From Eledone cirrhosa (Eukaryota), in NCBI GenBank assembly GCA_964016885.1, contig OZ024742.1, forward strand, positions 39,680,001 to 39,744,000: a stretch of DNA of 64,000 nucleotides, in the 5' to 3' direction. Below are positions 12,798-59,800 of the stretch, piece after piece. The notes under the pieces were generated by a model. It had not been told where the DNA came from, searched no databases, and saw nothing but the letters and a program-made list of their open reading frames with translations. The first letter of the stretch is position 1, and each line of letters opens with the position of its first letter. A program made the position numbers and the translations under genes.

Positions 12798-13280
12798 TTG
12801 ACCTGTCCGATTTCTTTTCTCGCGCGCTCTTGGCCAAGCCGGTATGAATTTTTTTTCTCTCTCTCTCTCTCGTCTGCGACTTCACAGAACTTATGTTTAC
12901 CGAATTCGCAGACTAGACCCCTTCTTCCTCCCGTTAGACCTGTGCGAAATTCCTTCCTTGCTCACATTTCAACCAGGTTTGATGGTCTTTATTCTCTCGT
13001 TCACGATTTCACCGAGTTTATATTCATAGAAATCTGGGACTTGTCCCTTTCTTCTCACTTTCTGTTGCTTAAACCATTTTGTTTGTTCACCCTAACGTCC
13101 CCTTTATTTACGTGTCCCAACGACTTTTTTTAGCCGTTGTTCGCACCAACCTGAGGTATATGGCCCTTAAAGCGATGAAATGCCTAGGACGGTTGGAGGG
13201 CCACTGATGAAGGACTTACTTTTTCATATGTAACCCATTTGCAACGCCGCAGCTCCATTATTATCATATTTACACACATA
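12795..13280 (+). mobile_element. ~485-bp non-coding element in (TA)n carrying the rearranged hammerhead motif
   Basis: Pyrimidine-rich body bounded by TA tracts; motif at 13114-13215. Confidence 0.65.
13114..13215 (+). ncRNA. Non-circularly permuted (pseudoknotted) hammerhead-like ribozyme, copy 1
   Basis: GTCC/GGAC, CAACG/CGTTG, TCGC/GCGA, CCAACC/GGTTGG, stem III AGGTAT/ATGCCT, stem I TGGCCCT/AGGGCCA. Core GAAA 13177-80, CTGATGA 13204-10; predicted cleavage after AUA at 13160. Confidence 0.8.
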
Positions 13281-13298
13281 TATATATATATATATATA

Positions 13299-13625
13299 TT
13301 GGTAAACGGAATAGAAAATGCTGACAAATTGTTCACAGTTGAAAAATGGTTTAATTAGGAATAAAAGAGTATTAGTGATTGTATGGGTTAGTATTCAGTT
13401 GTGGTTTTAAGTTTTTAAGTTTTTACCGGTTGCGCATTTCTAAATGCTTTTCAAAAATAATTTTGAGATAGAGTGTCCGTGCTGTTTGCCCAGATCAGAG
13501 CAAACAGCACGGACACTCTATCTCAAAATTATTTTTGAAAAGCATTTAGAAATGCGCAACCGGTAAAAACTTAAAAACTTAAAACCACAACTGAATACTA
13601 ACCCATACAATCACTAATACTCTTG
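13299..13625 (-). mobile_element. Fold-back element (~125-bp inverted arms) with decayed minimal HHR
   Basis: Arms ~13367-13488 and ~13500-13625. Motif TTTT-TGAAAA-GCATTT-AG-AAATGC-GCAAC-CG-GTA-AAAA is a degenerate CTGANGA/GAAAC core. Confidence 0.65.
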
Positions 13626-16600
13626 GACAGGGGAGAGGGTGGGTAGGTGTGAAAGGTGGAGTGGGAAGGGGGTCATGTGGGGGGATGGAGTGTGTATTAG
13701 TAGAAGTGATAGTGAGATGTGTGTGTGTGTGTGAAGGGATGTGGGTGGAGCGGGGAGAGGGAGAGAAAAGGTGTGGGAAGGGTTGGGGTGGGGGGAGTGT
13801 AGTGTACTGGTGTGCGTGTGCGTGTTTGGATGAGTGTGTGTGTGGTGAAGGAAGTGTTAGTGGGTGTTAGTATACTGGTGGTGGGGAAAGGGTTGAATGC
13901 GGGTGTGTTAGTGGGGGTCAGTGGTGGTAGGGTGTGTAGAGTGGGTGGTGTAAGTGGGTGTAGGTGGGTGTGTGTGTTCGTGTGCATGGGCTCGGGGGGA
14001 TGTTAGTGGTATTAGTTGTGGGGTGGTTGGAGTGGATGTGTGGGTGAGGGTTAGTGGCGGTAGTAGGGTGTGTGGATAGTGTGAGTGCGTGTATATATGT
14101 ACAGGTGGGTATGTGCGTGATAGGGGGAGGGGTGGGGATAATAGCATTGTTAGTTGGTGGAGGGTGGTCGGGGGTGGGGTGGGGTGGTAGTATTGTTAGT
14201 TGTGGAGTGTGCCAAGGGGGTGGGCGGTGAAAAGGAAGAGTGTGTTAGTGGTGTTAGTGGGGGATATGTGTGTGTTGGGTTGGGGGGGCAGGGCGGTCGA
14301 AGGCTAAAGGAATAGGGGGGTTCAGGCCGGGGGGAGTGTGGGTCTGTAGGGTGAAGATGGTGCGTTGTTCGACCCTGAGGCGGGTAGCGGGTGTTCCATG
14401 GCATTGGAGTAGGCCACAGACTGTGAGGTCGTGCGCGGAATGTCCAGGGGAGCCAAAGTGGCGGGCGATGGGGGAACTCCCGCTGAGACGAATATCCCGG
14501 GTTGTACGGTGAAACGGTCCGCCAGGCGACGGCCAGTCTGTCCGACGTAGGTTGCGCTGCACTCCGTGCAGCGAAGTCCATAGGCTAGGTTGGAGGAGGT
14601 GCAGCGGAAGGCATGCCGGACAGAGAGAGAGTGGCCGTTGGGACCCTGGAAGGTAGTGGTGTTGGTGATGTGGGGGAAGGTGTTGCAACGAGGCCTGGAA
14701 CAGGGAAGGGAACCGGGGGGGGAGAAGAGTGTGGGTTGGGGGGGGTAGAGAGCTGCGGATGAGTATGATGCGGAGATTGCGTGCGCGTTTGAAGGAGGGG
14801 AGTGGTGGGAATGGGATTATGTGGGAGGTGGAGGGGTCGGACTGGAGGCGGAGGAAGAGGCGGAGGATAGTGCGATGGAGGGGTAGGGTGCAGTGGTGGT
14901 AGGTGATGGGGAAGTGGAAGGGGAGATGGTGGGTGGGTGTGCCGTGGCGTGGGGTGATGGAGCGGGGGATAGCACGGGCGCGAGTGAGGGCGGTGTGGAG
15001 GGGGGAGGGGGAGTAACCTCTGCGGATGAAATGGCTGACTAGGGAAAGGGCCTGGGACTCAAAGTCAGCATCTCCGCTGCAGAGGCGGCGGATCCTGAGG
15101 AGTTGGGAGTAGGGAATAGAGTGTTTAGTGTGTGTAGGGTGGGAGGAGGTGAAGTCGAGGTAGGAGTGGGAGTCGGTGGGTTTTCAGAAGGCGGAGGTGA
15201 CAAGGGAGTGGTGGGAGGGGGTGATGGCGACGGTGATGGCTAGGAAGTGGACGTGGATGTTGGAGATAGAGGTGGTGAAGTGGTGGGAGAGGTGGAAGGA
15301 GCAGAAGAAGGAGAGAAAGGAGTCGAGCTGTTCTCGGGTGAGGGTCGTGTCTCCGATACAGTCGTCAATGTAACGACCGTACAGTTCGGGCGTGTGGCCG
15401 GTATACTGGGCAAAGATTTGGGCCTAAACATGGCCAACGAAAAGGTTGGCATAGTTTGGGCCCATTCTTGTGCTCATGGCTAACCACGTAACCTGTTGGT
15501 AAAACTCACCCGAGAAGGAGAAGCAGTTGAGGGTGAGGACCAGCTCGGCGAGGCGAAAGAGGGGAGGGCGAAGGTCGAGGTTGTGCTTCAGGGCACGTAG
15601 GCCGTCGACGTGGGGGATGACAGTATAAAGCGACTTGATATCTAGAGTGAAGAGGAGGGGATGTGGGCCGGTTGGGAAAGTGAAGGAGTCGAACAGGCGA
15701 AGGGCGTGGTTGGTGTCAGAGATGTGGGAGGGGAGGGTGGTGATGAGGGTGTCGAGGATGGAGTCAAGAAAGGCGGAGATGAGTTGGGTGTGGCAGTTGC
15801 AAGCGGAGACGATAGGGCGGCCGGGGTGGTCCGGTTTGTGAAGTTTGGGGAGGAAGTAGATAGTAGGGGTGCGGGGGGTGCGGACGATGAGGTGGAAAGC
15901 GGTGGGAGGGAGGAAGGAGGAGGCGACAAGGTGTTGGATGGTGTTGTTGGTAGAGGGGTGTGGGGTCGGAGGGTAGAGGGCGGTAGAAGAAGGGGTTACG
16001 GAGCTGCCTGAGGGCTTCGGCCGTGTAGAGGTCAGCGCGCCACATCACCACGGCGCCTCCCTTGTCCGCCGGTTTGATGACGATGTCATCTCGGCTACGG
16101 AGGGAGCAGAGAGCGAGGAGTTCGCCCCGTGAGATGTTATGCCGTTTGGAACGGTGACGGAAGTCGAAGCGATTTACTGCGCTACGGCAGGCGTCGACGA
16201 ACGCGTTCAGGGTGCTAAATTGCCCTGGGGCCGGCGTCCAAGACGATGGTCGTCGGCCCAGGGCGAGAAACGGGTCTGGGGCGTTCGGAGCCGGTGGTGT
16301 TTGATAAAAATGTGCCTGTAGCTTCGTGCGTCGCACGAATCGCTCGACTTCCGTTCGGGTGCGGAATTCGTCGCTGTGCGGAGTGTGGGGTATGAAGCGA
16401 AGGTCATTGAGATGGGCGGGGGTGGTGGATGGGGTGGTAGGGAGGAATGAGTGTAGCTTAAGGGCTTTGGTGGAGGTGAGGAAGGAGAAGAGGTCGTGGT
16501 TGAGGTTTTGGATGAAGAGGAGGATGGAGTGGGCGAGGAGGGGGTGGCATGCGGAGTTAAGGCGAAGGAGGGTGGGGTCAGTTGGTTATCAAGGTTGCGG

Positions 16601-17756: not shown

Positions 17757-17806
<50 letters not shown>

Positions 17807-17855
17807 ATATGTATATATGTGTATGTACATATACACATATACCGATAGGTATATA

Positions 17856-18067
17856 TATAACAAAGGAAGTGTGGTAAGGAACCAGGTGGACCATAACGCA
17901 CCAGAGTACTCGATACTTTGGGTAGTAGAGTGGGTAATAGAAAAATGTTCAAGACCCTGACGGCAGAACTCAAGCCGTTTAGACGGCTATCTCTGGACTC
18001 GATTTCAGTCCAGAAATAGCTGTTGAAACGGCTTGAGCTCTGCCGTCGGGTCTTGAACATTTTCCTA
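17856..18067. mobile_element. Fold-back element family F1
   Basis: Same head (GGTAAGGAACCAGGTGGACCATAACGCACC) and terminal palindrome as 5731 and 22560. Confidence 0.75.
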
Positions 18068-18446: not shown

Positions 18447-18820
18447 ATAGTAATAATAATAAATGTGAAGACTAAAATCCAAAGAGGGCTCGATAAGGAT
18501 AAATATATATCAAATATATAAGAACCGTAGAGCAAATATTTATTAAAATAACAGATTAAAGTTTAAGCAAAGAATCGCTGCTTTCACCCTTAACGGGATC
18601 TTCTGAAACTAACAAAGTCAATCTGTGAACGCAGAAGTGAATATTTCAAAAAACGTTGCAACCGGAGGAAGAGAGGAAGACGATACTTTGGTTCGTGGTG
18701 ACGTTCGCTGGCAAAGAACGGGAAAAAACGAATATAATACGTCATTATTTGGAGCGGTGAAAAACAATTACGCGCAAAGACAGAACCACGTTTATGGTAT
18801 CAAAGAGGTCGTAGACTAAT
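18447..18820 (-). mobile_element. Solo pseudo-LTR of the PLE at 38149-41871
   Basis: Diverged copy of 38149-38430 and 41500-41871; contains the HHR variant at 18560-18610(-); flanked by TA tracts. Confidence 0.85.
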
Positions 18821-18890
18821 ATATATATATATATATATATATACAAATAAATATATATATATATATACAAATAAATATATATATATATAT

Positions 18891-19222
18891 ATGAAGTAAA
18901 AATTAGAAAGAGAAGCCGGGGCTATCCATCATCAGTGATCTACTAGCCATCTTAGGTAATTCTTCGTATTAAAGATCAGATACCTCCGGCTAGCGCGAAC
19001 AATGACTAAAATAGGTTATTGGGATAAAAAGAATTGGGTGGAGAATTCTTTTTATCCCAATAACCTATTTTAGTTATTGTTCGCGCTAGCCGGAGGTATT
19101 TGATCTTTAATACGAAGAAATACCTAAGATGGTTAGTAGATCACTGATGATGGATAGCCCCGGCTTCTCTTTCTAATTTTTACTTCATATGTATCACACA
19201 ACACAGCATGCCATTTTTCATT

Positions 19223-19225
<3 letters not shown>
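18891..19225 (+). mobile_element. Fold-back element in (TA)n carrying the rearranged hammerhead motif on both arms
   Basis: Inverted arms ~18891-19035 and ~19044-19189; motif at 19054-19155(+) and 18924-19025(-). Confidence 0.8.
19054..19155 (+). ncRNA. Non-circularly permuted hammerhead-like ribozyme, copy 2
   Basis: ATCC/GGAT, CAATAAC/GTTATTG, TCG/CGA, CTAGCC/GGTTAG, AGGTAT/ATACCT, TGATCT/AGATCA. GAAA 19117-20, CTGATGA 19144-50; spacing identical to copy 1. Confidence 0.8.
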
Positions 19226-19285
<60 letters not shown>

Positions 19286-19289
<4 letters not shown>

Positions 19290-19390
19290 CGAAGGACGTG
19301 TGGTAAGGAACCAGATGGACCATAACGCCCCAGAGTACTCAATACGTCGAAACGGCTTGTGCTCTGCTGTCGGGGTTAAAAATGTTCCTA
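19286..19390. mobile_element. Short, internally deleted fold-back element family F1
   Basis: Head segment joined directly to GTCGAAACGGCTTG...GTCGGGG...TTCCTAT. Confidence 0.65.
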
Positions 19391-28123: not shown

Positions 28124-29350
28124 TTAATATGTCCAGGGATACTAGGTACCCCTAGAAATACATAGGTTGTCTATGATTCAGGGTTGTTCAATGGTGTTAA
28201 TTTGATACACTAGAACTTTAATATTAAGATAAGCAGAACAAGTAAAATTCAATCAATTTTTCAAAATACATTAAAAAATATAATATAAATATTTACCTCT
28301 TCTAGTGGCCCTTACTGATCAGTTTCGCTTTGTAAAACCTCATAAATCCGATGGATTCATGATGGAAAACCAAAGCTCATCAGAGAAGCATTTTCCCATC
28401 CTAGGGCTAAACGTCCCAGGAACGACAAAATATACAACCTCCTGCCAGCTAATAAAGGTCTGAAAGGTCGTAAAAGTGACCCGTATGTAAACTGGACCGA
28501 AGTAAAAGCGGGAAAATCAAAGACTTGCTGTCTACAATTACTACTAAAGAAATAGCAGCCTAGTAAAGCAACAGATTTGTTCTCAACGGACGGAGAAAAA
28601 GGTATAAGTTAATATGTCCAGGGATACTAGGTACCCCTAGAAATACATAGGTTGTCTATGATTCAGGGTTGTTCAATGGTGTTAATTTGATACACCAGAA
28701 CTTTAATATTAAGATAAGCAGAACAAGTAAAATTCAATCAATTTTTCAAAATACATTAAAAAATATAATATAAATATTTACCTCTTCTAGTGGCCCTTAC
28801 TGATCAGTTTCGCTTTGTAAAACCTCATAAATCCGATGGATTCATGATGGAAAACCAAAGCTCATCAGAGAAGCATTTTCCCATCCTAGGGCTAAACGTC
28901 CCAGGAACGACAAAATATACAACCTCCTGCCAGCTAATAAAGGTCTGAAAGGTCGTAAAAGTGACCCGTATGTAAACTGGACCGAAGTAAAAGCGGGAAA
29001 ATCAAAGACTTGCTGTCTACAATTACTACTAAAGAAATAGCAGCCTAGTAAAGCAACAGATTTGTTCTCAACGGACGGAGAAAAAGGTATAAGTTAATAT
29101 GTCCAGGGATACTAGGTACCCCTAGAAATACATAGGTTGTCTATGATTCAGGGTTGTTCAATGGTGTTAATTTGATACACCAGAACTTTAATATTAAGAT
29201 AAGCAGAACAAGTAAAATTCAATCAATTTTTCAAAATACATTAAAAAATATAATATAAAGGGCCACTAGAAGAGGTAAATATTTATATTATATTTTTTAA
29301 TGTATTTTGAAAAATTGATTGAATTTTACTTGTTCTGCTTATCTTAATAT
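28119..29350 (-). mobile_element. Retrozyme-like tandem repeat: 485-bp unit x ~2.3 with one hammerhead per unit, plus terminal inversion
   Basis: Unit starts at 28121, 28606, 29091 (near-identical). HHR at 28308-28389 and 28793-28874(-): CTGATGA-GCTTTG..long hairpin..CAAAGC-GAAAC-TGATCA-GTA. Inverted piece 29259-29350. Confidence 0.85.
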
Positions 29351-30465: not shown

Positions 30466-30469
<4 letters not shown>

Positions 30470-31016
30470 ACGTATTTTATTACATGTTACCATGTGCTAC
30501 CTGCAGTATTTTTCTCTATATTTTAATACATATATTTACCACTGCGATTCTGTGTTTTTTCTCTCTCTCTTACTGTTCCCCCATTCTCTCTGTTTCTCCC
30601 CCTCTGTCTTGTCCGTTAACTCTTCCTCACACTTTCACTCACTCACTGTTTTTCTCCCTCTTCTCTTCATTTCATCCTGCACTCACGGACGCTATTTTTT
30701 CTCTCTCTGCTCAATGGCATTCGTTCGTGCTGGACTATTCTTTCCCTAGCGCTCATATATTCACCTAGCTTACGCTAACAGAATAACTTTTGAAGCTTGT
30801 TTCTCTCCCACGGTATGCTATCTTTTCTGTTGTTCCCCTGTCTCACTCGCTTTACGCGTTTTAATTGTCCTAATAACTTATTTTGGTTATTATTGCACCG
30901 AAGTGAGATATATGATTTTTAATGCAATGAAATATCTATGATCTTCGGCAAATCACTGATGAGGGACGTATTTTATTACATGTTACCATGTGCTACCTGC
31001 AGTATTTTTCTCTATA

Positions 31017-31023
<7 letters not shown>
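30466..31023 (+). mobile_element. 496-bp unit with ~60-bp terminal direct repeat carrying the rearranged hammerhead motif
   Basis: AGGGACGTATTTTATTACATG...TTTTAATA at 30466 and 30962; TA flanks. Confidence 0.8.
30867..30967 (+). ncRNA. Non-circularly permuted hammerhead-like ribozyme, copy 3
   Basis: GTCC/GGAC, TAATAAC/GTTATTA, TTGCA/TGCAA, CCGAAG/CTTCGG, AGATAT/ATATCT, TGATTT/AAATCA. GAAA 30929-32, CTGATGA 30956-62; predicted cleavage after AUA at 30912. Confidence 0.8.
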
Positions 31024-39149: not shown

Positions 39150-41279
39150 CTATCCGTTAGGGTATAACGTAGGGCTGTAATACAGGAAAGTTTTGTGCAA
39201 TTTATGTTTACAAGCCGAAATTGCCTCAGATTTTTTGTTTAAGATGTGGTCTGTGGCGTAGAGTATTTCCAGGGCCTCAGCGGCGCAGAGGTCACATGGT
39301 CTTTTATTTCCGTTATACGATCTAGCCCTAGCTAGGATCTCCCAGTGTAACTTATATTGGGTGTGGTTGTCTTTTAGACTCCAGATATAAGCTGAAAGTG
39401 ACGTCATATTCCTTCTTAGAGGGTAACGAAAAGAATGGGTATGCATGTAAAGACGCTGCTTGAAACTATTGGCGGTTAACCCTATGTAGGCCCTACGGGA
39501 CGTGGGTGTTACAACCTTACATTTGCAGACAATGTTACTAGAGAGGCATTTCCCGGATAGGGGACAATCAGCCCGATTCCTACAATTACAGTTAGTACTA
39601 ACTACAGGGTTGCACGTGTTCCTACGGCTAGGTATTTTAGCTAAATTTGAAGCTGTGATGTTATGTGCAAGGTTAGGAGTCGTTGAGTAAGAAATTTTAA
39701 TAGTGTTTCTATTAAAAATTTTACTATATTTATGTGTAGGGGGAAAATGCTTCGTAATAAGGGAAAGAAAGATCTTAGCTAATGGTGTGGCCACCTCCAT
39801 ATTATATGGTGGGTTAAACCAACAAATGCGACGGGATCTATTTCTTCTAGGTCTATTCTCGTACTCTGTATATGCTACCTTATCGACAAATCCACTTCGA
39901 GCAAGAGCTTCATTGTAATAAGTGGAATAGTCGTTGAAAATGCGCTCGTTGGTGGAAAGACGGGAGAGCCTCAACGAAACGTTTTTTACCAGGTTCTTGG
40001 TTATGCTGGCAGGATGGTTGGAATGCTTACTTATGTAATTAAGCGTATCATTCGGCTTTCTATACGGGTAATGCAACCCATTCAATAAATTGAGGGTAAC
40101 GTCGAGGTAATTAACGACCGAGAGATTGGCCTCAACCTGTATAGAGAGGTTGAAGCCTTTAAAGAAGGCTGTGAGTTCTTTTCTGAATCTGTCGCAAGCA
40201 CGAGGTCCGCACTTAGTCATGGTCAAAAGGCCATCGTCACGGTACAAACGACCGCCGGCGTTGGGGAATTCGTCCTTGATAGAGAAAAGAAGGAAAAGGC
40301 CAATAAGATCAGTAACCTCCGCAGAGTCACTGGCGCCCATACTCACGTCGAATGGAGTACTATTGGATTTTTTAATCCAAATAGAATCGTCGAAATTAAT
40401 CACCGACTTTCGGGCATTAAGGATGACATCAACTTCGAAATCCTTAACCACTGTGAGTGTTTTAGCGAAATTGATAGCTCTAAGGAGAAGTGGTAAAGTG
40501 ATGGAGGAGTAGTAATTGTTGATGTCGAATTGGATAAAACGGCAATGTTCCTTGTTACATATGCCGTTGAACCAATCAATCACCGCGAAAGAATTGTTCC
40601 ACAGTGCGAGAGGGGCCAAATTTCTAATTTCAGGTATAATTCTATCAATAATCGTTTTACTAAGTCTACCTAAATCGGACCTCGTAGGGTTAATAAGCCG
40701 AATAGAGGGGTTGTTCGGAAAATTGGATTTGTGGTCCTTCGGGGTAAAATGGGGAGAGATAGGGTCCAGGGGTTCGGTCCGGTCCAGGATGTTGAGATCA
40801 GATGTGATTTTAAACCCAGCATCGTTGATTTCATTGATGACACACCGATTAGTTTTACGGTAATCCTTAGTTACAGCATTATGTAGTAGTTGATGGTAAG
40901 TACTGCGCTCCACTTGATATAGGTTGCCAGTTTTGTCGGAATGGACGTGCACAGCGTTAGAATCCTTAATAGAACGAATTCTATTCTTCAGGTCTTGCTG
41001 GAAGGAATTGCTCCTATTCCGAAATTTGATACTCCGAATGAGTTCCAAGACATCATTTTCGAAGGGTAGCAATGCTGGGTTCCACGGAGGGTTATTATAG
41101 GTTTTAAATCCAAATTTGTCCTGCTTGTTGTCTGCTTTTCGCGGATTATCGAAATAAAAGGCACGCCAACGCAACCTTTTAATGAACGCGTCTGTTTTCT
41201 GTATCAGGAGTTTTAGGTATGTTTTCCTGCTTGGTACGGGGATGTTCTTTGTAGAAGTATTCAGATGTTGTTTCTGCAT
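39150..41279 (-). CDS. PLE polyprotein: reverse transcriptase + Cys-rich linker + GIY-YIG endonuclease (709 aa; Hydra-clade-like)
   Basis: SDKTGN, KDHK..F..NP..RLINP, QFDINNYYSSI, MGASDSAEV, LYRDDGL, NYLDVTLNL, WFNPPY, CNCRNRADCPLSGKC, NIVCKC...YIGLT..FKQRLYMH, CDLCAAE. Confidence 0.92.
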   Translation of the reverse strand: MQKQHLNTSTKNIPVPSRKTYLKLLIQKTDAFIKRLRWRAFYFDNPRKADNKQDKFGFKTYNNPPWNPALLPFENDVLELIRSIKFRNRSNSFQQDLKNRIRSIKDSNAVHVHSDKTGNLYQVERSTYHQLLHNAVTKDYRKTNRCVINEINDAGFKITSDLNILDRTEPLDPISPHFTPKDHKSNFPNNPSIRLINPTRSDLGRLSKTIIDRIIPEIRNLAPLALWNNSFAVIDWFNGICNKEHCRFIQFDINNYYSSITLPLLLRAINFAKTLTVVKDFEVDVILNARKSVINFDDSIWIKKSNSTPFDVSMGASDSAEVTDLIGLFLLFSIKDEFPNAGGRLYRDDGLLTMTKCGPRACDRFRKELTAFFKGFNLSIQVEANLSVVNYLDVTLNLLNGLHYPYRKPNDTLNYISKHSNHPASITKNLVKNVSLRLSRLSTNERIFNDYSTYYNEALARSGFVDKVAYTEYENRPRRNRSRRICWFNPPYNMEVATPLAKIFLSLITKHFPPTHKYSKIFNRNTIKISYSTTPNLAHNITASNLAKIPSRRNTCNPVVSTNCNCRNRADCPLSGKCLSSNIVCKCKVVTPTSRRAYIGLTANSFKQRLYMHTHSFRYPLRRNMTSLSAYIWSLKDNHTQYKLHWEILARARSYNGNKRPCDLCAAEALEILYATDHILNKKSEAISACKHKLHKTFLYYSPTLYPNG

Positions 41280-41710
41280 GATGAATATAAGTCAGTAGAG
41301 TGCTCAACCGAAGGAGCCAAATAGTAATAATAATCGGAGATTCATTCGGTCTCCTAGTTAGAATTTTAGTCTACGACTTCTGCTATACCATTTACGTGGT
41401 TTTGTCTTTGCACGCTATTGTTCTCCACGCTCCACATATGACTTATTATCTTCGTTTTTTCGTTCATCGCCAGAGAACGTCTCTATGCACCATTTAGAGA
41501 ACATTAGTCTACGACCTCTTTTAGACCATAAACGTGGTTCTGTCCTTGCACGTAATTGTCTTTCACCGCTCCTATTAATGACGTATTATTCGTTTTTTCC
41601 CGTTCTTTACCAGCGAACGTCACCATGAACCAAAGTATCGTCTTCCTGTCTTCCTCCGGCTGCAACGTTTTTTGAAATATCCAGTTCTGCGTTTACAGAT
41701 TGACTTTGTT

Positions 41711-54526: not shown

Positions 54527-57500
54527 ATAATGCTTTCTTTATTAACCACAAGGGTTTACATAAAGTAGACATTAAGGACAGTACAGGACAATACAGGATG
54601 GTACAAATGGGCATTTCCGCGTGTAAAAAACAAAAAACAGAGGATGTAACAAAAAAAATAACAATGAAAAATTCCCCAATACGGGGGAGACTTCCGAGGG
54701 ACATTCGTGGAGAAAGCCCATTAAAAAGCCACAGTAACCATGACCACAAGGGCAAGTGCCTTCTCCCAGTTTTCCACCTTTAATTTACAGACACATACTC
54801 AGAGTAGGCCCATTCACTCGGGCCATTCTTGCCTCTCTCACCCATCTTTCAACAAAATGCTGGGAAGAGAGCACTTCCCTCTCTACCCTGATTTTCCTTT
54901 TCAAATGTAATTTGAAAAAGTTAATCAGGGCATCACTGAAGAGGTAAGTGCTCGTCTTCAGCCCTTTCAAACGTGTCCACCATACTATCTCTTTCACCAT
55001 GGCCACCAGACATAAAAACTTCCTGCCCTTCCCGGCTAAAGGAAGAGGGCGGGGCAATCCTCACGATGGACTCAGCTGATAGCTAGATCCGTCCTACACG
55101 CGACAGCAGGTGGTCGACATAAACCCACAAGTAAGCAATGCTCGGACACTGGACGAGTGCGTGCAGGACGGTTTCGTCGCCCTGCGCGCATCTCTGACAT
55201 GCCCGGCTGACGGCACCTCCATGCCTGTAGAGTTTATCCCGAACTGGCAAAGCTCCTCGGTAGCACTGCCAGGCCAGGGATTTCTGGAAGTTGTCCATAG
55301 GCCCCGACTCGAAATTCTTCCGAAGAGATTGGCTAGTTGATTTTCGTCGACGCCTAGAGTTTCCCCAAGTACGTCGTCGCTCTTCCCCTCCACTAATCCT
55401 CTATAGAACGCCGAGGTGGAGTTTCCACCGATCACATTGCCCGATTGGTCGAGGGCTGTGAGCGCCTGAAGACATTCCAGTCTCCATGCGCTCCCTCTCG
55501 GTCTTCGCTTGACCCAGGACTGCAGCTCTGTCAAGGAGACGAGCTGGGGAAAGACGCGTCTAGCAAACGGCGACCACACCTGATCTCCGTTGAGGAAGAG
55601 GTGGAGATGTCGTAGTCTGAGCGCGTCTGCGCATCATCAGCCACGGCATGCCCAGCCCTCCACGTAGCGGGTGTTGACAGCAGATGGACCGCCTGACCAT
55701 CGGAGCGCGTCCCTTCCACAAAAAGCGAAAGAGCAAACGCTCCAGCGCAGTCAGGCGGGGCTTAGGAAAAGGTACGACGGTCAGGCGGTAGTAGATGACG
55801 GACGCGATGTATGCGTTAGCCACCTCCGCTCGACCTTTCAGGGATAGCTTCCTCTCGGCCCATTTCTGGGTGAGAGAAGCCACCCTGCTCGTCACCTCGT
55901 CCCAGTTTTTGTCCGTCTGGAGGTCCGGACCGAACCAGACCCCTAGCAATTTAATCGGTCGTCCGTCCAACGCCCGACGACGCTGATGGACGGCATGGAC
56001 CTGCCTCTCCAGGTGCCGAGCTGCAGGCCCACTGACTTTTCCTGGTTGATCATTGCTCCTGTCACCGCTTCGTATTCTCTTAGTGTAGTGCCGATCGCCT
56101 CGATGTGTTTGGCGTTCGACACCACTACGGTGACATCGTCCGCATATGCTGACACGGATCGTCCGCATCCTAGTTCGCGCGGGACGCCCCTCAACGTCTC
56201 CAGTTTGTGCAGTAATGGCTCGAGAGTCAATACGTACGAGAGGGACGAGAGGGGACATCCTTGGCGGACCGAGCGTATGATGTTGAACGGTTCTGAAAAG
56301 TGACCGTTCACTCTCACCACAGAGCAGATGTCGCTGTGCATGGCAGCGGTCCAGCCTCTGAAGATGGGCCCAAAGCCAGCCGCCCTCAGGACTGCCGCTA
56401 GGTAAGGATGATCTAAATTGATCAAGGACCCACCCGTGCCAGGTTCCCTAGCTACCCTCTCTACGATGTATCGCATGAGGTGGAGGTTGTTGTGGATGGA
56501 TCTGTCGGGAATGGCGCATGTCTGCGCCTCTCCCACCAGACCACCAACGACAAGCGCCAACCTCTTTGCTAGCACCTTGGTCCAAATCTTGAACTCTGTG
56601 TTTAGCAGAGTTATGGGCCTAAAATTATCTATGTTATCCCCCTTGTTCGGATTCTTTCTCAGCAGCGCCACAGCTCCTCGGCTCACAGAGCTGGTTATTC
56701 TCCCGTTCTGTTGCCAGTTGCAGTAGACGTCCGCCAAGAGGCCCCCGAACAAGTCTGGCATCTGTACGTAAAGTTCATAGGGCAGACCATCCAAACCGGA
56801 CGATTTACCCCTTGTGCAGCCAGTCATTGCCTCCCGTACTTCATCGGCTGTTATCGGCTTTTCGCAACACTCCGCCTCAGTGGCCGAGAGCCGCGGCAGT
56901 CCGTCGAGGTAGACACTAAAGTCCATCCCTCGATCCGGCCCGCCGCTTCCCCCGAACAGCTGAGCGAAGTGTCGCTGAAAAGCTTCACATATTTTCCCGG
57001 GATCGAGTAGCATGCGCCCGTCGTGGTCCACCAAAGACCAGATCGTGGCTTTGTTGCCACGACGCGCCTCCGCCAGTCGGGCCCATTGAACGGCTTTCGT
57101 CCCCTCGTGTCTGAGAGCACGCACCTTATCTCTGACAACGCAGCCTTCGTGCTTTGCATTGAAGAATTGGTCAAGGGCCAATATCGCCGCAAGTACGTCA
57201 GTCGCGATGCCTTTGCTAAGCGCCTCGTATAATTTTCTAACTAGTTCTCCCTCTGCTCTATTTTTCTCTATAGCTAAAGCCTTACTAAACCTAATGGACT
57301 CTATTCTAATCGCTCTTTTCAGAGCAAACCACCACTTGTTGTTGACGATGGCCCCCGTCAACGCCCGCTTAACTAGTTCGCTAATCCGGTTTCTGTAGAC
57401 CTTGCGCGCTGGTAAGGGGGCGTTTAGCTTCCAGTAGCCGGGTCCTCGTCTATGAAGCTTATCTAAGTCAAGCACACAGATCACGAATTTGTGGTCCGTG

Positions 57501-59800
57501 TAGCTGACTATCTTGAATTGTGGACAGCCTAAGCTAGACCTATCAATTTCCCTACAAAATACTCTATCTAGATATGATCTGGATGACCCTATGCGATTTG
57601 TCCAAGTCCACATTGGCACATTCGGGAAATCGAATCGGTACCTGTCAAACAAGACAGTTCAAAACGCATGAGCAGGTTGGTGAGGCTCTTGCATCCTCCT
57701 CCCATATCCGCTAATCCCACACAGTCCCAGCGTGCATCAAAGATCCCGTTCCAGTCGCCCACTAACACTAAAGAGCAGGACGTTCCAAGAAAGGTCTCCA
57801 GACGCCGGAAGAAATCAGGCCGCCCTGCTCCTGTCGGGGCATAGACGGCCACTAGCCTGAAAGCTTGCCCGTCTCCGCTGGTCACGTCCAGCACCACCAA
57901 CTTACCCTCTGGGTCTAGGAAGATGGCCCGTATGGCGAGATCCAAACCTCTCCGAAAAAGCACAGCAACTCCTCCCCCCGATCCAGGACGGCTGGGAGAT
58001 GCGTACACATCGTAGCCGCCGAAGATCGGTGCGAAGGCCCGTGCTTCGGAGATTCTGGTCTCGCTGATGGCCACTACATCTATGTTTAGTGACCTGAGGT
58101 CGTTGAGCAGGTGGCCCTGCTTCCATGACGACCCCAAGCCACGCGCATTTATGCTGCCTATTGTGAGTGAGGTCATGTTGAAATGGAGCGGAAAAGATGG
58201 GAAAGACCACTTACCTTACTTCTCGTAAAGGAACGATGGTTTCTCCATCCTTTTCACTGCTTGTGGCCTCCTCCGGAAGGATGTCCTTATAAATCCTCCT
58301 GGAGAGTGCTTGTCAGAAGTCTCCGATGTCTTTGGGGAATTTTTGTTTTAGTGTCGTGTACGTTTTCTGTGTGATGCGAGTGATTTGTATGTGTGGAGGT
58401 GGTGTGAACTTTTGGGGTGTTGTGTAGTCTTTTTCTGTGATGCTGGTGTTGTGTTGGATGTAGTGTAATAATTGGTTGTTGTTCAAATTTAATGCCGTGT
58501 AGTGTGTATCGTTTTGGTTGTTTTGTTTTGTTTGCGTTTGTTGTGGGTTTGTTTTTGTTTCGCTTTTTGGTGACTTTTGTGGTGTTGGTGATGGTGGTGT
58601 TGGGGTTAATGATGGTGATGGTGTTGGTGTTTGTGGTGATGGGGTTGGTGATGCTGGTGTGGATGGTGGCATAGCTGTCCTAACTTTTTTGTTTTATAGT
58701 TTATTTGTTTCCCTCTGTATTTTGTTTTTGGAGGGGGAGGGAAGATGATTTTTTCTGTTTTTTTCTTTTTTCCTGATACCGTTTCCCACTCCTCGTCGTC
58801 ACAATCTGTCTCCAGTTGCGATAGGTCGGGGAGTGGAAAATCCTCCACATGCGTTGGTTTTGATTGTGGTGGATGGTGTAGGCGCTGGTGTTAGTTCTGG
58901 CGCGTTGGGTGGTGGTGGTGTTTGTTTTGCTACTGTTGCTGGGGTTGTTGCTGTTACAGTTGCTTCTGTTGTTGCTGCTACAGTTGTTGCTGCCATTTCT
59001 GCTGCTGGTGGTGTTGATGGTTGAGTCACTGGGGTGGGTAAGAGAGGTGGCCTCAACCTTTTAGCCTGAGGGCAGAAAGCCCTTAGGTGGGTTCCTTCAC
59101 CACATACGACACACCTAGGCCTTCTGCCCTCGACGATTACGGTAAGGTGGCTGCCGTCAGTGAGGTCTATTACCTCTGGGATCTCCTCAATGCTTTTTTG
59201 GTCCGCTTGGATCAGGAGCTCCATCACAGATCCGGACCAGTTCTCATCCTTTTCTTTAGCTATTTCGATTATCTTGGTGTTGGCCTCGTACCCATTCTTC
59301 TTTACCATTTTCTTGGCTTCATCTAGTTCCTCCTGAGTTACCTGGATTGTTTAGCATGTTTTAGCTGTTTGGCAAAAGACACGATGTTGTTATTCTCATT
59401 GTTGTTGTTGCTGTTGTTGTTATTGTTACTTTTGTTATTGTTATTTTTAGTTTCAGTTGTAGTGATGGTGGCGTCATTGGTGTTCGGTGTGGAAGAGTCT
59501 ATTCTGGGTGAATCCATTTCGATGTCACGAGATAATTTTTTTTTTTTTTTTGTTTCTGTTGTCGCTGTGGTGGTGGTGGGTGTGACGGCTTCAACACCTG
59601 CAGTCATTTGTAATGGCGGGAAATTAATATCTGCATGAGACAAATTTATATTATTGCTACTGCTTATATTTTTAGTGTTGGCAAACGTAGTAATATTTAC
59701 AATGGTGGTGTTGGTGTGAGGTGTTAGTTTGTGAGGAAGGCTCTCAGCTACGTGGTGTAGCTGTGAGTCGTCCATGACTTTTTCAAGAAATTTTTTGTTT
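54527..59800 (-). mobile_element. Near full-length, frameshifted L1/Tx1-clade LINE
   Basis: ORF1 pieces with CCHC knuckle CVVCGEGTHLRAFC (58799-59308); APE endonuclease SINARGL..VAISET..VYAP..GDWN (57589-58176); RT GLDGLPYE, RPITLLN, VRQGCPLS, AYADD (55943-57652); C-terminal CQRCAQGDETVLHALVQC (55083-55298). 3' end abuts a truncated SINE. Confidence 0.92.

Follow-up and report, generated by a model that had tools for sequence, protein, structure and literature searches.

Permuted hammerhead ribozymes have been described as type SGC, the closest relative of the motif reported here, with 583 sequences, and as type CSG, with two; all the type-SGC examples came from assembled metatranscriptomes, according to the sections of Eckert 2023 (PMC10085705) drawn on here. 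That study assumed that hammerhead blocks cannot be interrupted, and its search descriptor requires CGAAA together with a stem II following CUGAUGA(U)G, and would therefore miss a form in which stem II is split. Work on retrozymes in Li 2026 (bioRxiv 10.64898/2026.07.22.740005, in the part consulted) relied on a type I search only. Naiads are described in the sections of Craig 2021 (PMC8557442) used here as being without canonical hammerheads, and some of them, including an octopus and a squid element, carry the tag HHR_core or HHR_half_core with no fold given. The same account regards as typical that copies are inverted and 5'-truncated, that partial tandems occur and that (TA)n serves as the target.

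We analysed a window of 64,000 nucleotides from Eledone cirrhosa (assembly GCA_964016885.1, contig OZ024742.1, positions 39,680,001 to 39,744,000 of the forward strand), and all coordinates below are counted from its first letter. It is quite likely that at 18891..19225 a short non-coding repeat, itself likely a Naiad derivative of the non-autonomous kind, has inserted into (TA)n as a fold-back truncated at its 5' end, and that it carries a predicted self-cleaving S-G-C hammerhead with a split stem II. The plus strand holds a 5'-truncated copy of a non-coding repeat of about 568 nt, here called family A, running from the fold-back point to the usual 3' end of the family (19044..19225), and the minus strand holds an inverted copy of the 3' part of the element (18891..19043) that ends in the (TA)n flank. 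The (TA)n target lies on both sides (18815..18892 and 19226..19289). A first-pass annotation of this DNA had described an inverted repeat of about 145 bp with the motif on both arms, and we measured arms of 151 nt (18885-19035 and 19044-19194) that are 97% complementary and separated by 8 nt. The minus arm reaches 8 nt further upstream than the plus arm, and those 8 nt form the hairpin loop. At the minus/plus junction there is a 2-nt overlap (AA), the mark that would be expected from snap-back priming of a cDNA. Since the plus arm begins 9 nt and the hairpin centre lies about 14 nt upstream of the fold, both arms hold the whole motif, in agreement with the earlier placement of the fold-back about 15 nt upstream. 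A second small fold-back, belonging to another repeat family with a type I-like hammerhead (compare L011), adjoins at 19290-19389, with more pieces at 17796-17916 and 18022-18050.

On both arms we predict a self-cleaving hammerhead of S-G-C order with an apparently undescribed order of parts and a split stem II. The whole predicted fold spans 19053..19156 on the plus arm, where it comprises six helices with AUU, GAAA and CUGAUGA. It begins with the 5' strand of helix P6 (19053..19057), whose partner lies in the tail after the core (19152-19156), and with a hairpin, P7, located between P6 and P5 (19058..19079). The 5' strand of P5 (19081..19085) pairs with 19111-19115 in place of the 10.2-10.6 strand of stem II, and the 5' strand of Pd (19086..19091) pairs with 19131-19136. 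The connectivity and the SGC-2 oligos in the available part of Eckert 2023 (PMC10085705) suggest that Pd is the equivalent of the helix that joins stems I and II in type SGC. Block S (19094..19106) includes the 5' strand of stem III, the triplet and the 5' strand of stem I, with H17 at 19100 and the predicted cut after it. Block G (19111..19125) includes the 11.6-11.1 strand, GAAA at 19117-19120 and the 3' strand of stem III. The remaining stretch (19131..19156) holds the 3' strand of Pd, the 3' strand of stem I (19138-19143), CUGAUGA (19144-19150), base 10.1 (19151) and the 3' strand of P6. On the minus arm the predicted fold lies at 18923..19026, with AUC at 18981-18979, CUGAUGA at 18935-18929, U instead of A15.1 at 18959, and an extra A.C mismatch in P7.

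The pairings of this fold were examined in 15 family representatives, namely 11 of the 12 clusters of at least two copies (L056 and L303 were left out as truncated or redundant) and five single copies. Across the six helices 95.7% of 510 cells were paired and 20 of 34 pairs had changed on both sides, counts that are not probabilities and lean towards the model because the representatives are related and had passed filters for the core and for stems I, III and Pd; P5, P6 and P7 were not among the filters. None of 500 shuffles scored as high, and slid controls reached 27-42%. Stem I was 98.9% paired, with two-sided changes in 5 of its 6 pairs, stem III 100% with 2 of 5, Pd (its role read from connectivity) 95.6% with 5 of 6, and P7 96.7% with 4 of 8. 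An earlier set of 18 representatives was similar; stems I, III and Pd covary in it, and a conventional stem II is weak there (61% paired).

The P5 helix, between the 11-strand and the 5' flank, turned up in an unbiased helix scan, and its letters switch by family: GCGA/UCGC in 143/163 copies, GCAA/UUGC in 45/52 and GCGU/ACGC in 4/11, although the contrast is weakened by a GCAA partner that is also present in 51/167 of the GCGA-type flanks. A perfect 4-bp P5 was found in 192/246 copies. The flank site of P6 lies 41-43 nt upstream of U16.1 and pairs with the tail after CUGAUGA; at least 4 bp form in 180/201 copies and two of five pairs have changed on both sides, but P6 has little length, and 5 bp also form with a foreign tail at nearly the same rate (0.33 versus 80/201). 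When the arms were folded singly by a plain method, which cannot model pseudoknots, neither stood out (z -0.3 to -1.8). This folding also offered an interaction helix between the 3' strand of Pd and the tail after the core, which was dropped as it is not kept in other families.

The motif is abundant. A core pattern in which GAAAU is followed, after 22 free bases, by CUGAUGA and then NGGA had 16,792 matches in the 3.0-Gb genome versus 4 for a reversed control, and thus the motif is not due to chance. A looser core gave 18,783 matches versus 5 in the control, and other spacings and letters gave a further 710, 1,009 and 47 matches, which overlap in part. At positions left free in the pattern, among 100 listed matches of the looser core, A15.1 was A in 99, G5 was G in 99 and N7 was C in 15. 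Units bearing the motif are non-coding, 445-706 nt long, and are found in tandems, in fold-backs and in (TA)n targets; they carry no shared open reading frame, the longest ATG frames (31-162 aa) having been compared by length only. For the family A unit the tandem period is 568 nt (L010/L019), and the family A search gave 1,817 candidates, of which 40 were scored. Across 12 units, with gaps included, identity was 74-80% in the motif region versus 30-64% elsewhere; the 100% identity of the core letters in these units is partly built in by the search pattern.

When the window was scanned for hammerhead blocks in any order, S-G-C motifs were found at 13204, 19144 and 30956, with different letters and the same fixed spacing (18 from U16.1 to G12 and 27 from G12 to C3). 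The first belongs to a young sister, family B (13113..13216, plus strand), which has the same fold, a predicted cut after 13160 and compensatory letters in stem I and Pd; all 40 of its listed matches (40/40) are 98-100% identical. The other young sister, family C, is present as a monomer (30467..31022, plus strand) made up of one 496-nt unit and a 60-nt terminal redundancy that is identical in 60/60 nt at a period of 496. Its fold lies at about 30866-30968 on the plus strand with a predicted cut after 30912. We also found older, decayed families with C at 11.1 (L412-L441). In three of these, L416, L439 and L413, the 11-strand resembles that of octopus Naiads. For L439 two pairings are open, P5 and, past an extra U, a 4-bp conventional stem II, which makes it a possible intermediate. 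Elsewhere, a metagenome scan for the motif gave 5 matches with the stems in none, viral contigs scanned for the motif gave 0 matches, and no more than two short contigs came from four sequencing runs of other organisms. One low-depth contig from a run of another organism (X14), with its end at 19084, extends into block S and stem I and hints at the family in other species.

Several other elements are located in the window. Canonical type I (C-G-S) hammerheads were found on the minus strand at 28383, 28868, 31421 and 47085, the first two in a 485-nt tandem, and conventional retrozyme-like families therefore coexist with permuted ones. An Rfam scan of the window listed no hammerhead among 150 of its 215 matches, and the canonical type I motifs of the window were absent there too, which leaves this negative with little weight. 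A near-perfect palindrome of 160 nt (13415-13574) lies past the 3' side of a Penelope-type element on the minus strand, which has frame pieces at 14254-16585. On the minus strand at 39150-41291 there is an open Penelope-type frame of 713 aa with a reverse transcriptase and, at the C terminus, GIY-YIG, which by eye resembles Hydra-clade proteins and has pieces of 88-97% identity at several other loci. In addition, broken LINE-type frames with endonuclease and reverse transcriptase motifs occupy 55094-58215 on the minus strand.

Cleavage is predicted from the constant catalytic bases and the covarying helices, and a life cycle can be proposed. A tandem or circular transcript would undergo a single cut in each unit, after H17. 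About 20 bp in P6, P5, Pd and stem III would continue to hold the monomer's 3' end against its own 5' part, and this retained pairing would favour ligation into a circle. Priming by a Penelope-type reverse transcriptase would follow about 75 nt downstream of CUGAUGA, where (TA)n is nicked, and the enzyme would copy uncut, multimeric or circular RNA. At 18891..19225 the cDNA would have stopped, snapped back on the 2-nt overlap and been copied into the inverted arm, after which each arm would have acquired two changes. The copy itself is likely dead, since a P5 pair is broken in both arms, the minus arm lacks A15.1, and a read-through transcript would be one long hairpin (-263 and -246 kcal/mol for a transcript through both arms).

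The best surviving alternative is that the fold derives from a hammerhead and no longer cleaves itself in the short repeats, being retained as a signal for recognition or packaging by the Penelope-type protein, or cleaving only with that protein. This is unlikely in our estimate. In its favour are the non-canonical 10.1-11.1 position in abundant families and a precedent from an anole element, in which, in the part of PMC11167929 used here, the hammerhead cuts only with protein and is dispensable for insertion in vitro. There is also no truncation peak at the predicted cut: 5' ends of copies fell there in 12/67 cases versus 11.0 expected, which is not a significant peak, and a pairing-aware rule gave 15/66 versus 10.5 (p 0.09) and 5/19 versus 2.9, again not significant, from 99 and 30 rows examined, of which the remainder were intact upstream or without the core. 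Upstream of the cut we counted 8 ends versus 23.8, a deficit confounded by the filter used. A further pattern was dominated by an intact family that carries a 1-nt insertion; among 100 of its listed rows, tallied by eye, the breaks numbered about 18 across 15 upstream positions and about 10 across the 5 positions at the cut, with no clear peak. No such 5'-end peak would be expected from templates that are uncut or circular; the family C monomer has its terminal redundancy of 60 nt, and in the anole element the main substrate was unprocessed RNA (PMC11167929, in part). Against a pure signal, the catalytic bases as well as the helices are constant across families while N7 varies, the triplets are AUC or AUA, and tandem units with terminal redundancy fit a cycle of cutting and circularisation.

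A second question is whether stem II is truly split. A G10.1-C11.1 pair is normally preferred in hammerheads. The Eckert 2023 search descriptor is consistent with this. In the abundant families 11.1 is U or A and not the usual C, and although 10.1 pairs with 11.1 in 216/239 copies, the pair fails in 23/239 and in some whole families. Positions 10.2-10.4 pair with 11.2-11.4 in only 19, 0 and 9 of 239 copies, and the 11.2-11.5 strand pairs instead with the 5' flank as P5, which is 96.7% paired. In the model we prefer, P5 would stack as stem II, the distal part of which is predicted to come from the 5' flank, across a junction that holds P6 and P7 as additional helices. The motif could otherwise be an ordinary type-SGC hammerhead with a contiguous, imperfect stem II (10.1-11.1, a purine-rich 3x3 internal loop, 10.5-11.5 and 10.6-11.6), with P5 and P6 belonging to an alternative fold that is inactive or regulatory. 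That arrangement draws on the same 10.1-11.1 pairs and on two more, 10.5-11.5 (222/239 copies) and 10.6-11.6 (161/239), some changes being two-sided, and the change at 19112 would be harmless in its register. We nevertheless regard it as improbable, given that the contiguous helix is 61% paired versus 89-97% for P5, that it is lost in the GCGU families, which keep P5, and that in octopus and coral Naiads, read by eye, the strand after CUGAUGA pairs with the 11-strand over 0-2 bp at most, against 6/6 for the flank.

The two arms had attracted attention as a means of reconstructing an ancestor, and we compared them with 43 other family A copies (at least 85% identity over more than 110 nt, mostly chosen by likeness to the plus arm). 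There are exactly four differences between the arms: at 19075 (plus) and 19004 (minus), at H17 (U at 19100 in plus, C at 18979 in minus), at 15.1 (A at 19120 in plus, U at 18959 in minus) and in Pd (G-U at 19133 in plus, G-C at 18946 in minus). The minus arm thus combines AUC and a perfect Pd with GAAU, and the plus arm GAAA with AUU, as had been read from the sequence earlier; the Pd of the plus arm has one G-U. At each difference the family base is present in one arm, which would fit real mutations after insertion, and assembly error may also lie behind the differences; four sequencing runs under the same species label (X1-X3 and X21) showed little or no depth at these positions, and none of the records spans the locus. 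The plus arm is not a clear null, since AUU is still an NUH triplet, weaker than AUC according to the part of PMC8879150 consulted.

Family A bears out the ancestral states that the first-pass annotation had proposed, AUC, GAAA and an intact Pd. The copies gathered genome-wide retain both GAAA (40/43) and a cleavable NUH triplet (AUC, 39/43), together with CUGAUGA in 39, A at 15.1 in 43 and C at the Pd site in 40; by these core bases the plus arm passes with AUU and the minus arm fails at 15.1. Pd has six Watson-Crick pairs in 25 copies, five in 14 and four in 4, and 18/43 copies are perfect in triplet, GAAA, CUGAUGA and Pd together. The description of the ancestral core as fully canonical holds for the catalytic bases and not for stem II, where 11.1 is A and 10.2-10.4 are unpaired with 11.2-11.4.

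The arms by themselves do not suffice for such an ancestor. Both carry four further changes, at 19065, 19112 (G to A, in block G), 19127 and 19158, which are absent in 41/42, 43/43, 43/43 and 43/43 relatives, and a 23-nt pattern containing two of them matched these two arms only in the genome. Two of the shared changes break helix pairs, that at 19112 in P5 and that at 19065 in P7, where the innermost pair is lost in both arms. Therefore, an ancestor built from the arms only would be worse than any intact family copy, and two copies without their family cannot polarise changes. Either the template had already diverged or the arms were partly homogenised. Conversion from arm to arm within this palindrome, with its 8-nt loop, is possible at the four shared positions. 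Sharing of this kind is out of the ordinary: we counted 3 rare shared changes in 98 nt scored at this locus and none in 15/19 other inverted pairs, a comparison from which 12/32 pairs were dropped for having too few relatives and in which some arm-specific counts are inflated by truncation.

Nor is the fold-back something special, as had been suggested. Inverted upstream copies were frequent in all four samples (8/23 in family A, 5/25 in family B, 5/25 in family C and 6/30 among pattern-sampled motif copies), counts in which both arms of one event can be included, so that the last six represent three events, and the trait is described for Penelope-like insertions in the part of Craig 2021 used here. 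The fold-back at 18891..19225 is an ordinary, decayed copy of a short repeat. The notion that it is a special record of the ancestral ribozyme, with two arms enough to rebuild it, matches the family majority in the three named states but is very improbable in view of the private changes shared by both arms, two of them in helices, the commonness of fold-backs, and the better ancestor to be had from thousands of copies and near-identical young families.

We also compared the repeats with Naiads, using the last 330-400 nt of the 53 consensus sequences in the Craig 2021 supplement, read by eye. The split S-G-C fold was found by eye at six of these 3' ends: two from octopus, one from squid and three from Acropora. 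The two octopus Naiads have all six helices in the same block order, a 6-bp P5 including G-C11.1, and a GAAA-to-CUGA spacing of 27 as in family A. They also share a 12-nt stretch identical to P7 of family A and have about 74 nt to the 3' end versus 75 in family A. The likeness of the repeat 3' end to a Naiad consensus, compared by eye only, is clear for these two. The squid Naiad has stems I and III and Pd by eye, with P5 at 4/5. In the three Acropora Naiads all six helices were seen by eye in unrelated sequence, and in the A. millepora element P6, P7, P5, Pd, III and I have 8, 6, 6, 10, 12 and 6 bp. Among the other 3' ends of the 53, bivalves included, no such fold was seen by eye in the last 330-400 nt, and it may lie further upstream.

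Different orders were observed at some other Naiad ends in the same supplement. Six nematode elements (Naiad-1/2/3_Nbra, Hcon, Hpol and Asuum) end, by eye, in well-paired type-CSG hammerheads that have an extra helix besides stems I, II (G10.1-C11.1) and III. Among the spider and ostracod ends, Naiad_Sdum, Smim, 1_Dst and 4_Dst have GAAA upstream of a CUGACGA-like core and a short stem III, which suggests G-S-C (type II) order.

With regard to coding capacity, the searches made found no Naiad frame (N-terminal GIY-YIG, C-terminal reverse transcriptase) within the units, next to a motif or elsewhere in this genome. Two scans with degenerate Naiad motifs turned up nothing real, and such a frame was also absent from the sequence preceding 30 older motifs of the C11.1 type and from 6 stretches of greater length. 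A Penelope-type frame piece lay within 900 nt of the motif at 20/356 loci, in mixed families and orientations, and the motif was found at 0/30 GIY-YIG loci. In 20 GIY-YIG regions examined, the nuclease was C-terminal wherever a long frame held both motifs. The (TA)n target, 5' truncation, partial tandems and inverted 5' copies are all present, traits that are common to other Penelope-like clades as well. The short repeats are likely non-autonomous derivatives of Naiad Penelope-like elements, and the motif is probably the ribozyme that Naiads were thought to lack. More broadly, we think it reasonably likely that Naiads use permuted hammerheads, split S-G-C in cephalopods and corals and type CSG in nematodes, and that in this genome the split form owes its roughly 17,000-19,000 copies to non-autonomous Naiad derivatives, a class of retrozyme invisible to type I searches.

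The motif is the main finding, a predicted and strongly supported hammerhead variant to which the fold-back and its two-arm reconstruction, ordinary and in part misleading, add little. If the fold cleaves, non-circular hammerhead permutations, previously known only from metatranscriptome contigs according to the sections of Eckert 2023 (PMC10085705) drawn on here, would be common in animal chromosomes and tied to a named retroelement clade, and a further topology would exist, with a helical junction inserted at stem II. The split form, if true, would break the assumption that the three hammerhead blocks cannot be interrupted, would answer a point left open in the available part of Craig 2021, namely why Naiads lack hammerheads, and would mean that retrozyme censuses made with type I descriptors undercount. 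The near-identical young copies would then be natural material for direct assay and structure work.

In conclusion, the motif shares features with several described systems. The open text of PMC and bioRxiv, a scope outside which subscription papers fall, mentioned type-SGC only in Eckert 2023 and held nothing tying non-circular hammerheads to Naiads, retrozymes or cephalopods. Like Naiads (Craig 2021, PMC8557442, in part), the repeats sit in (TA)n targets and show 5' truncation, partial tandems and inverted 5' copies, and their fold is, by eye, that at the 3' ends of the octopus, squid and coral consensus sequences, but unlike Naiads they have no open reading frame. Like the non-LTR retrozymes, as described in the parts consulted of PMC7229834 and bioRxiv 10.64898/2026.07.22.740005, they form non-coding tandem units with one hammerhead each at high copy number, and the dependence of those retrozymes on Penelope-like elements is likewise counted as shared here. 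Non-LTR retrozymes are, however, defined by or searched with type I hammerheads, whereas the units here, 445-706 nt long and known from DNA only, carry a non-circular permutation of S-G-C order with no GAAA downstream of CUGAUGA. Penelope-like element hammerheads of C-G-S order, in the source text available, also have their core near the 3' end, but they have a weak helix III and act as dimers, while the S-G-C form here has full stems I and III. The nearest system is type SGC (HRIMA-1 and variants, PMC10085705, in part), with which the motif shares the S-G-C order, a 3-nt linker after stem I, the conserved core and a helix, here Pd, that joins the far ends of stems I and II. In type SGC stem II is contiguous and adjacent to CUGAUGA with a G10.1-C11.1 pair, and the examples are metatranscriptomic, whereas here block C is interrupted, the stem II and Pd strands lie 5' of block S, the opening in block C is closed by P6 and P7, which have no counterpart in the type-SGC sections consulted, and the motif is present in about 17,000 chromosomal copies. 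As we read that source, joining base 10.1 directly to the flank strand of P5 would give the connectivity of type SGC, and the form found here would be that molecule opened inside block C; it probably works like type SGC, and with its block C interrupted it is not filed as one.
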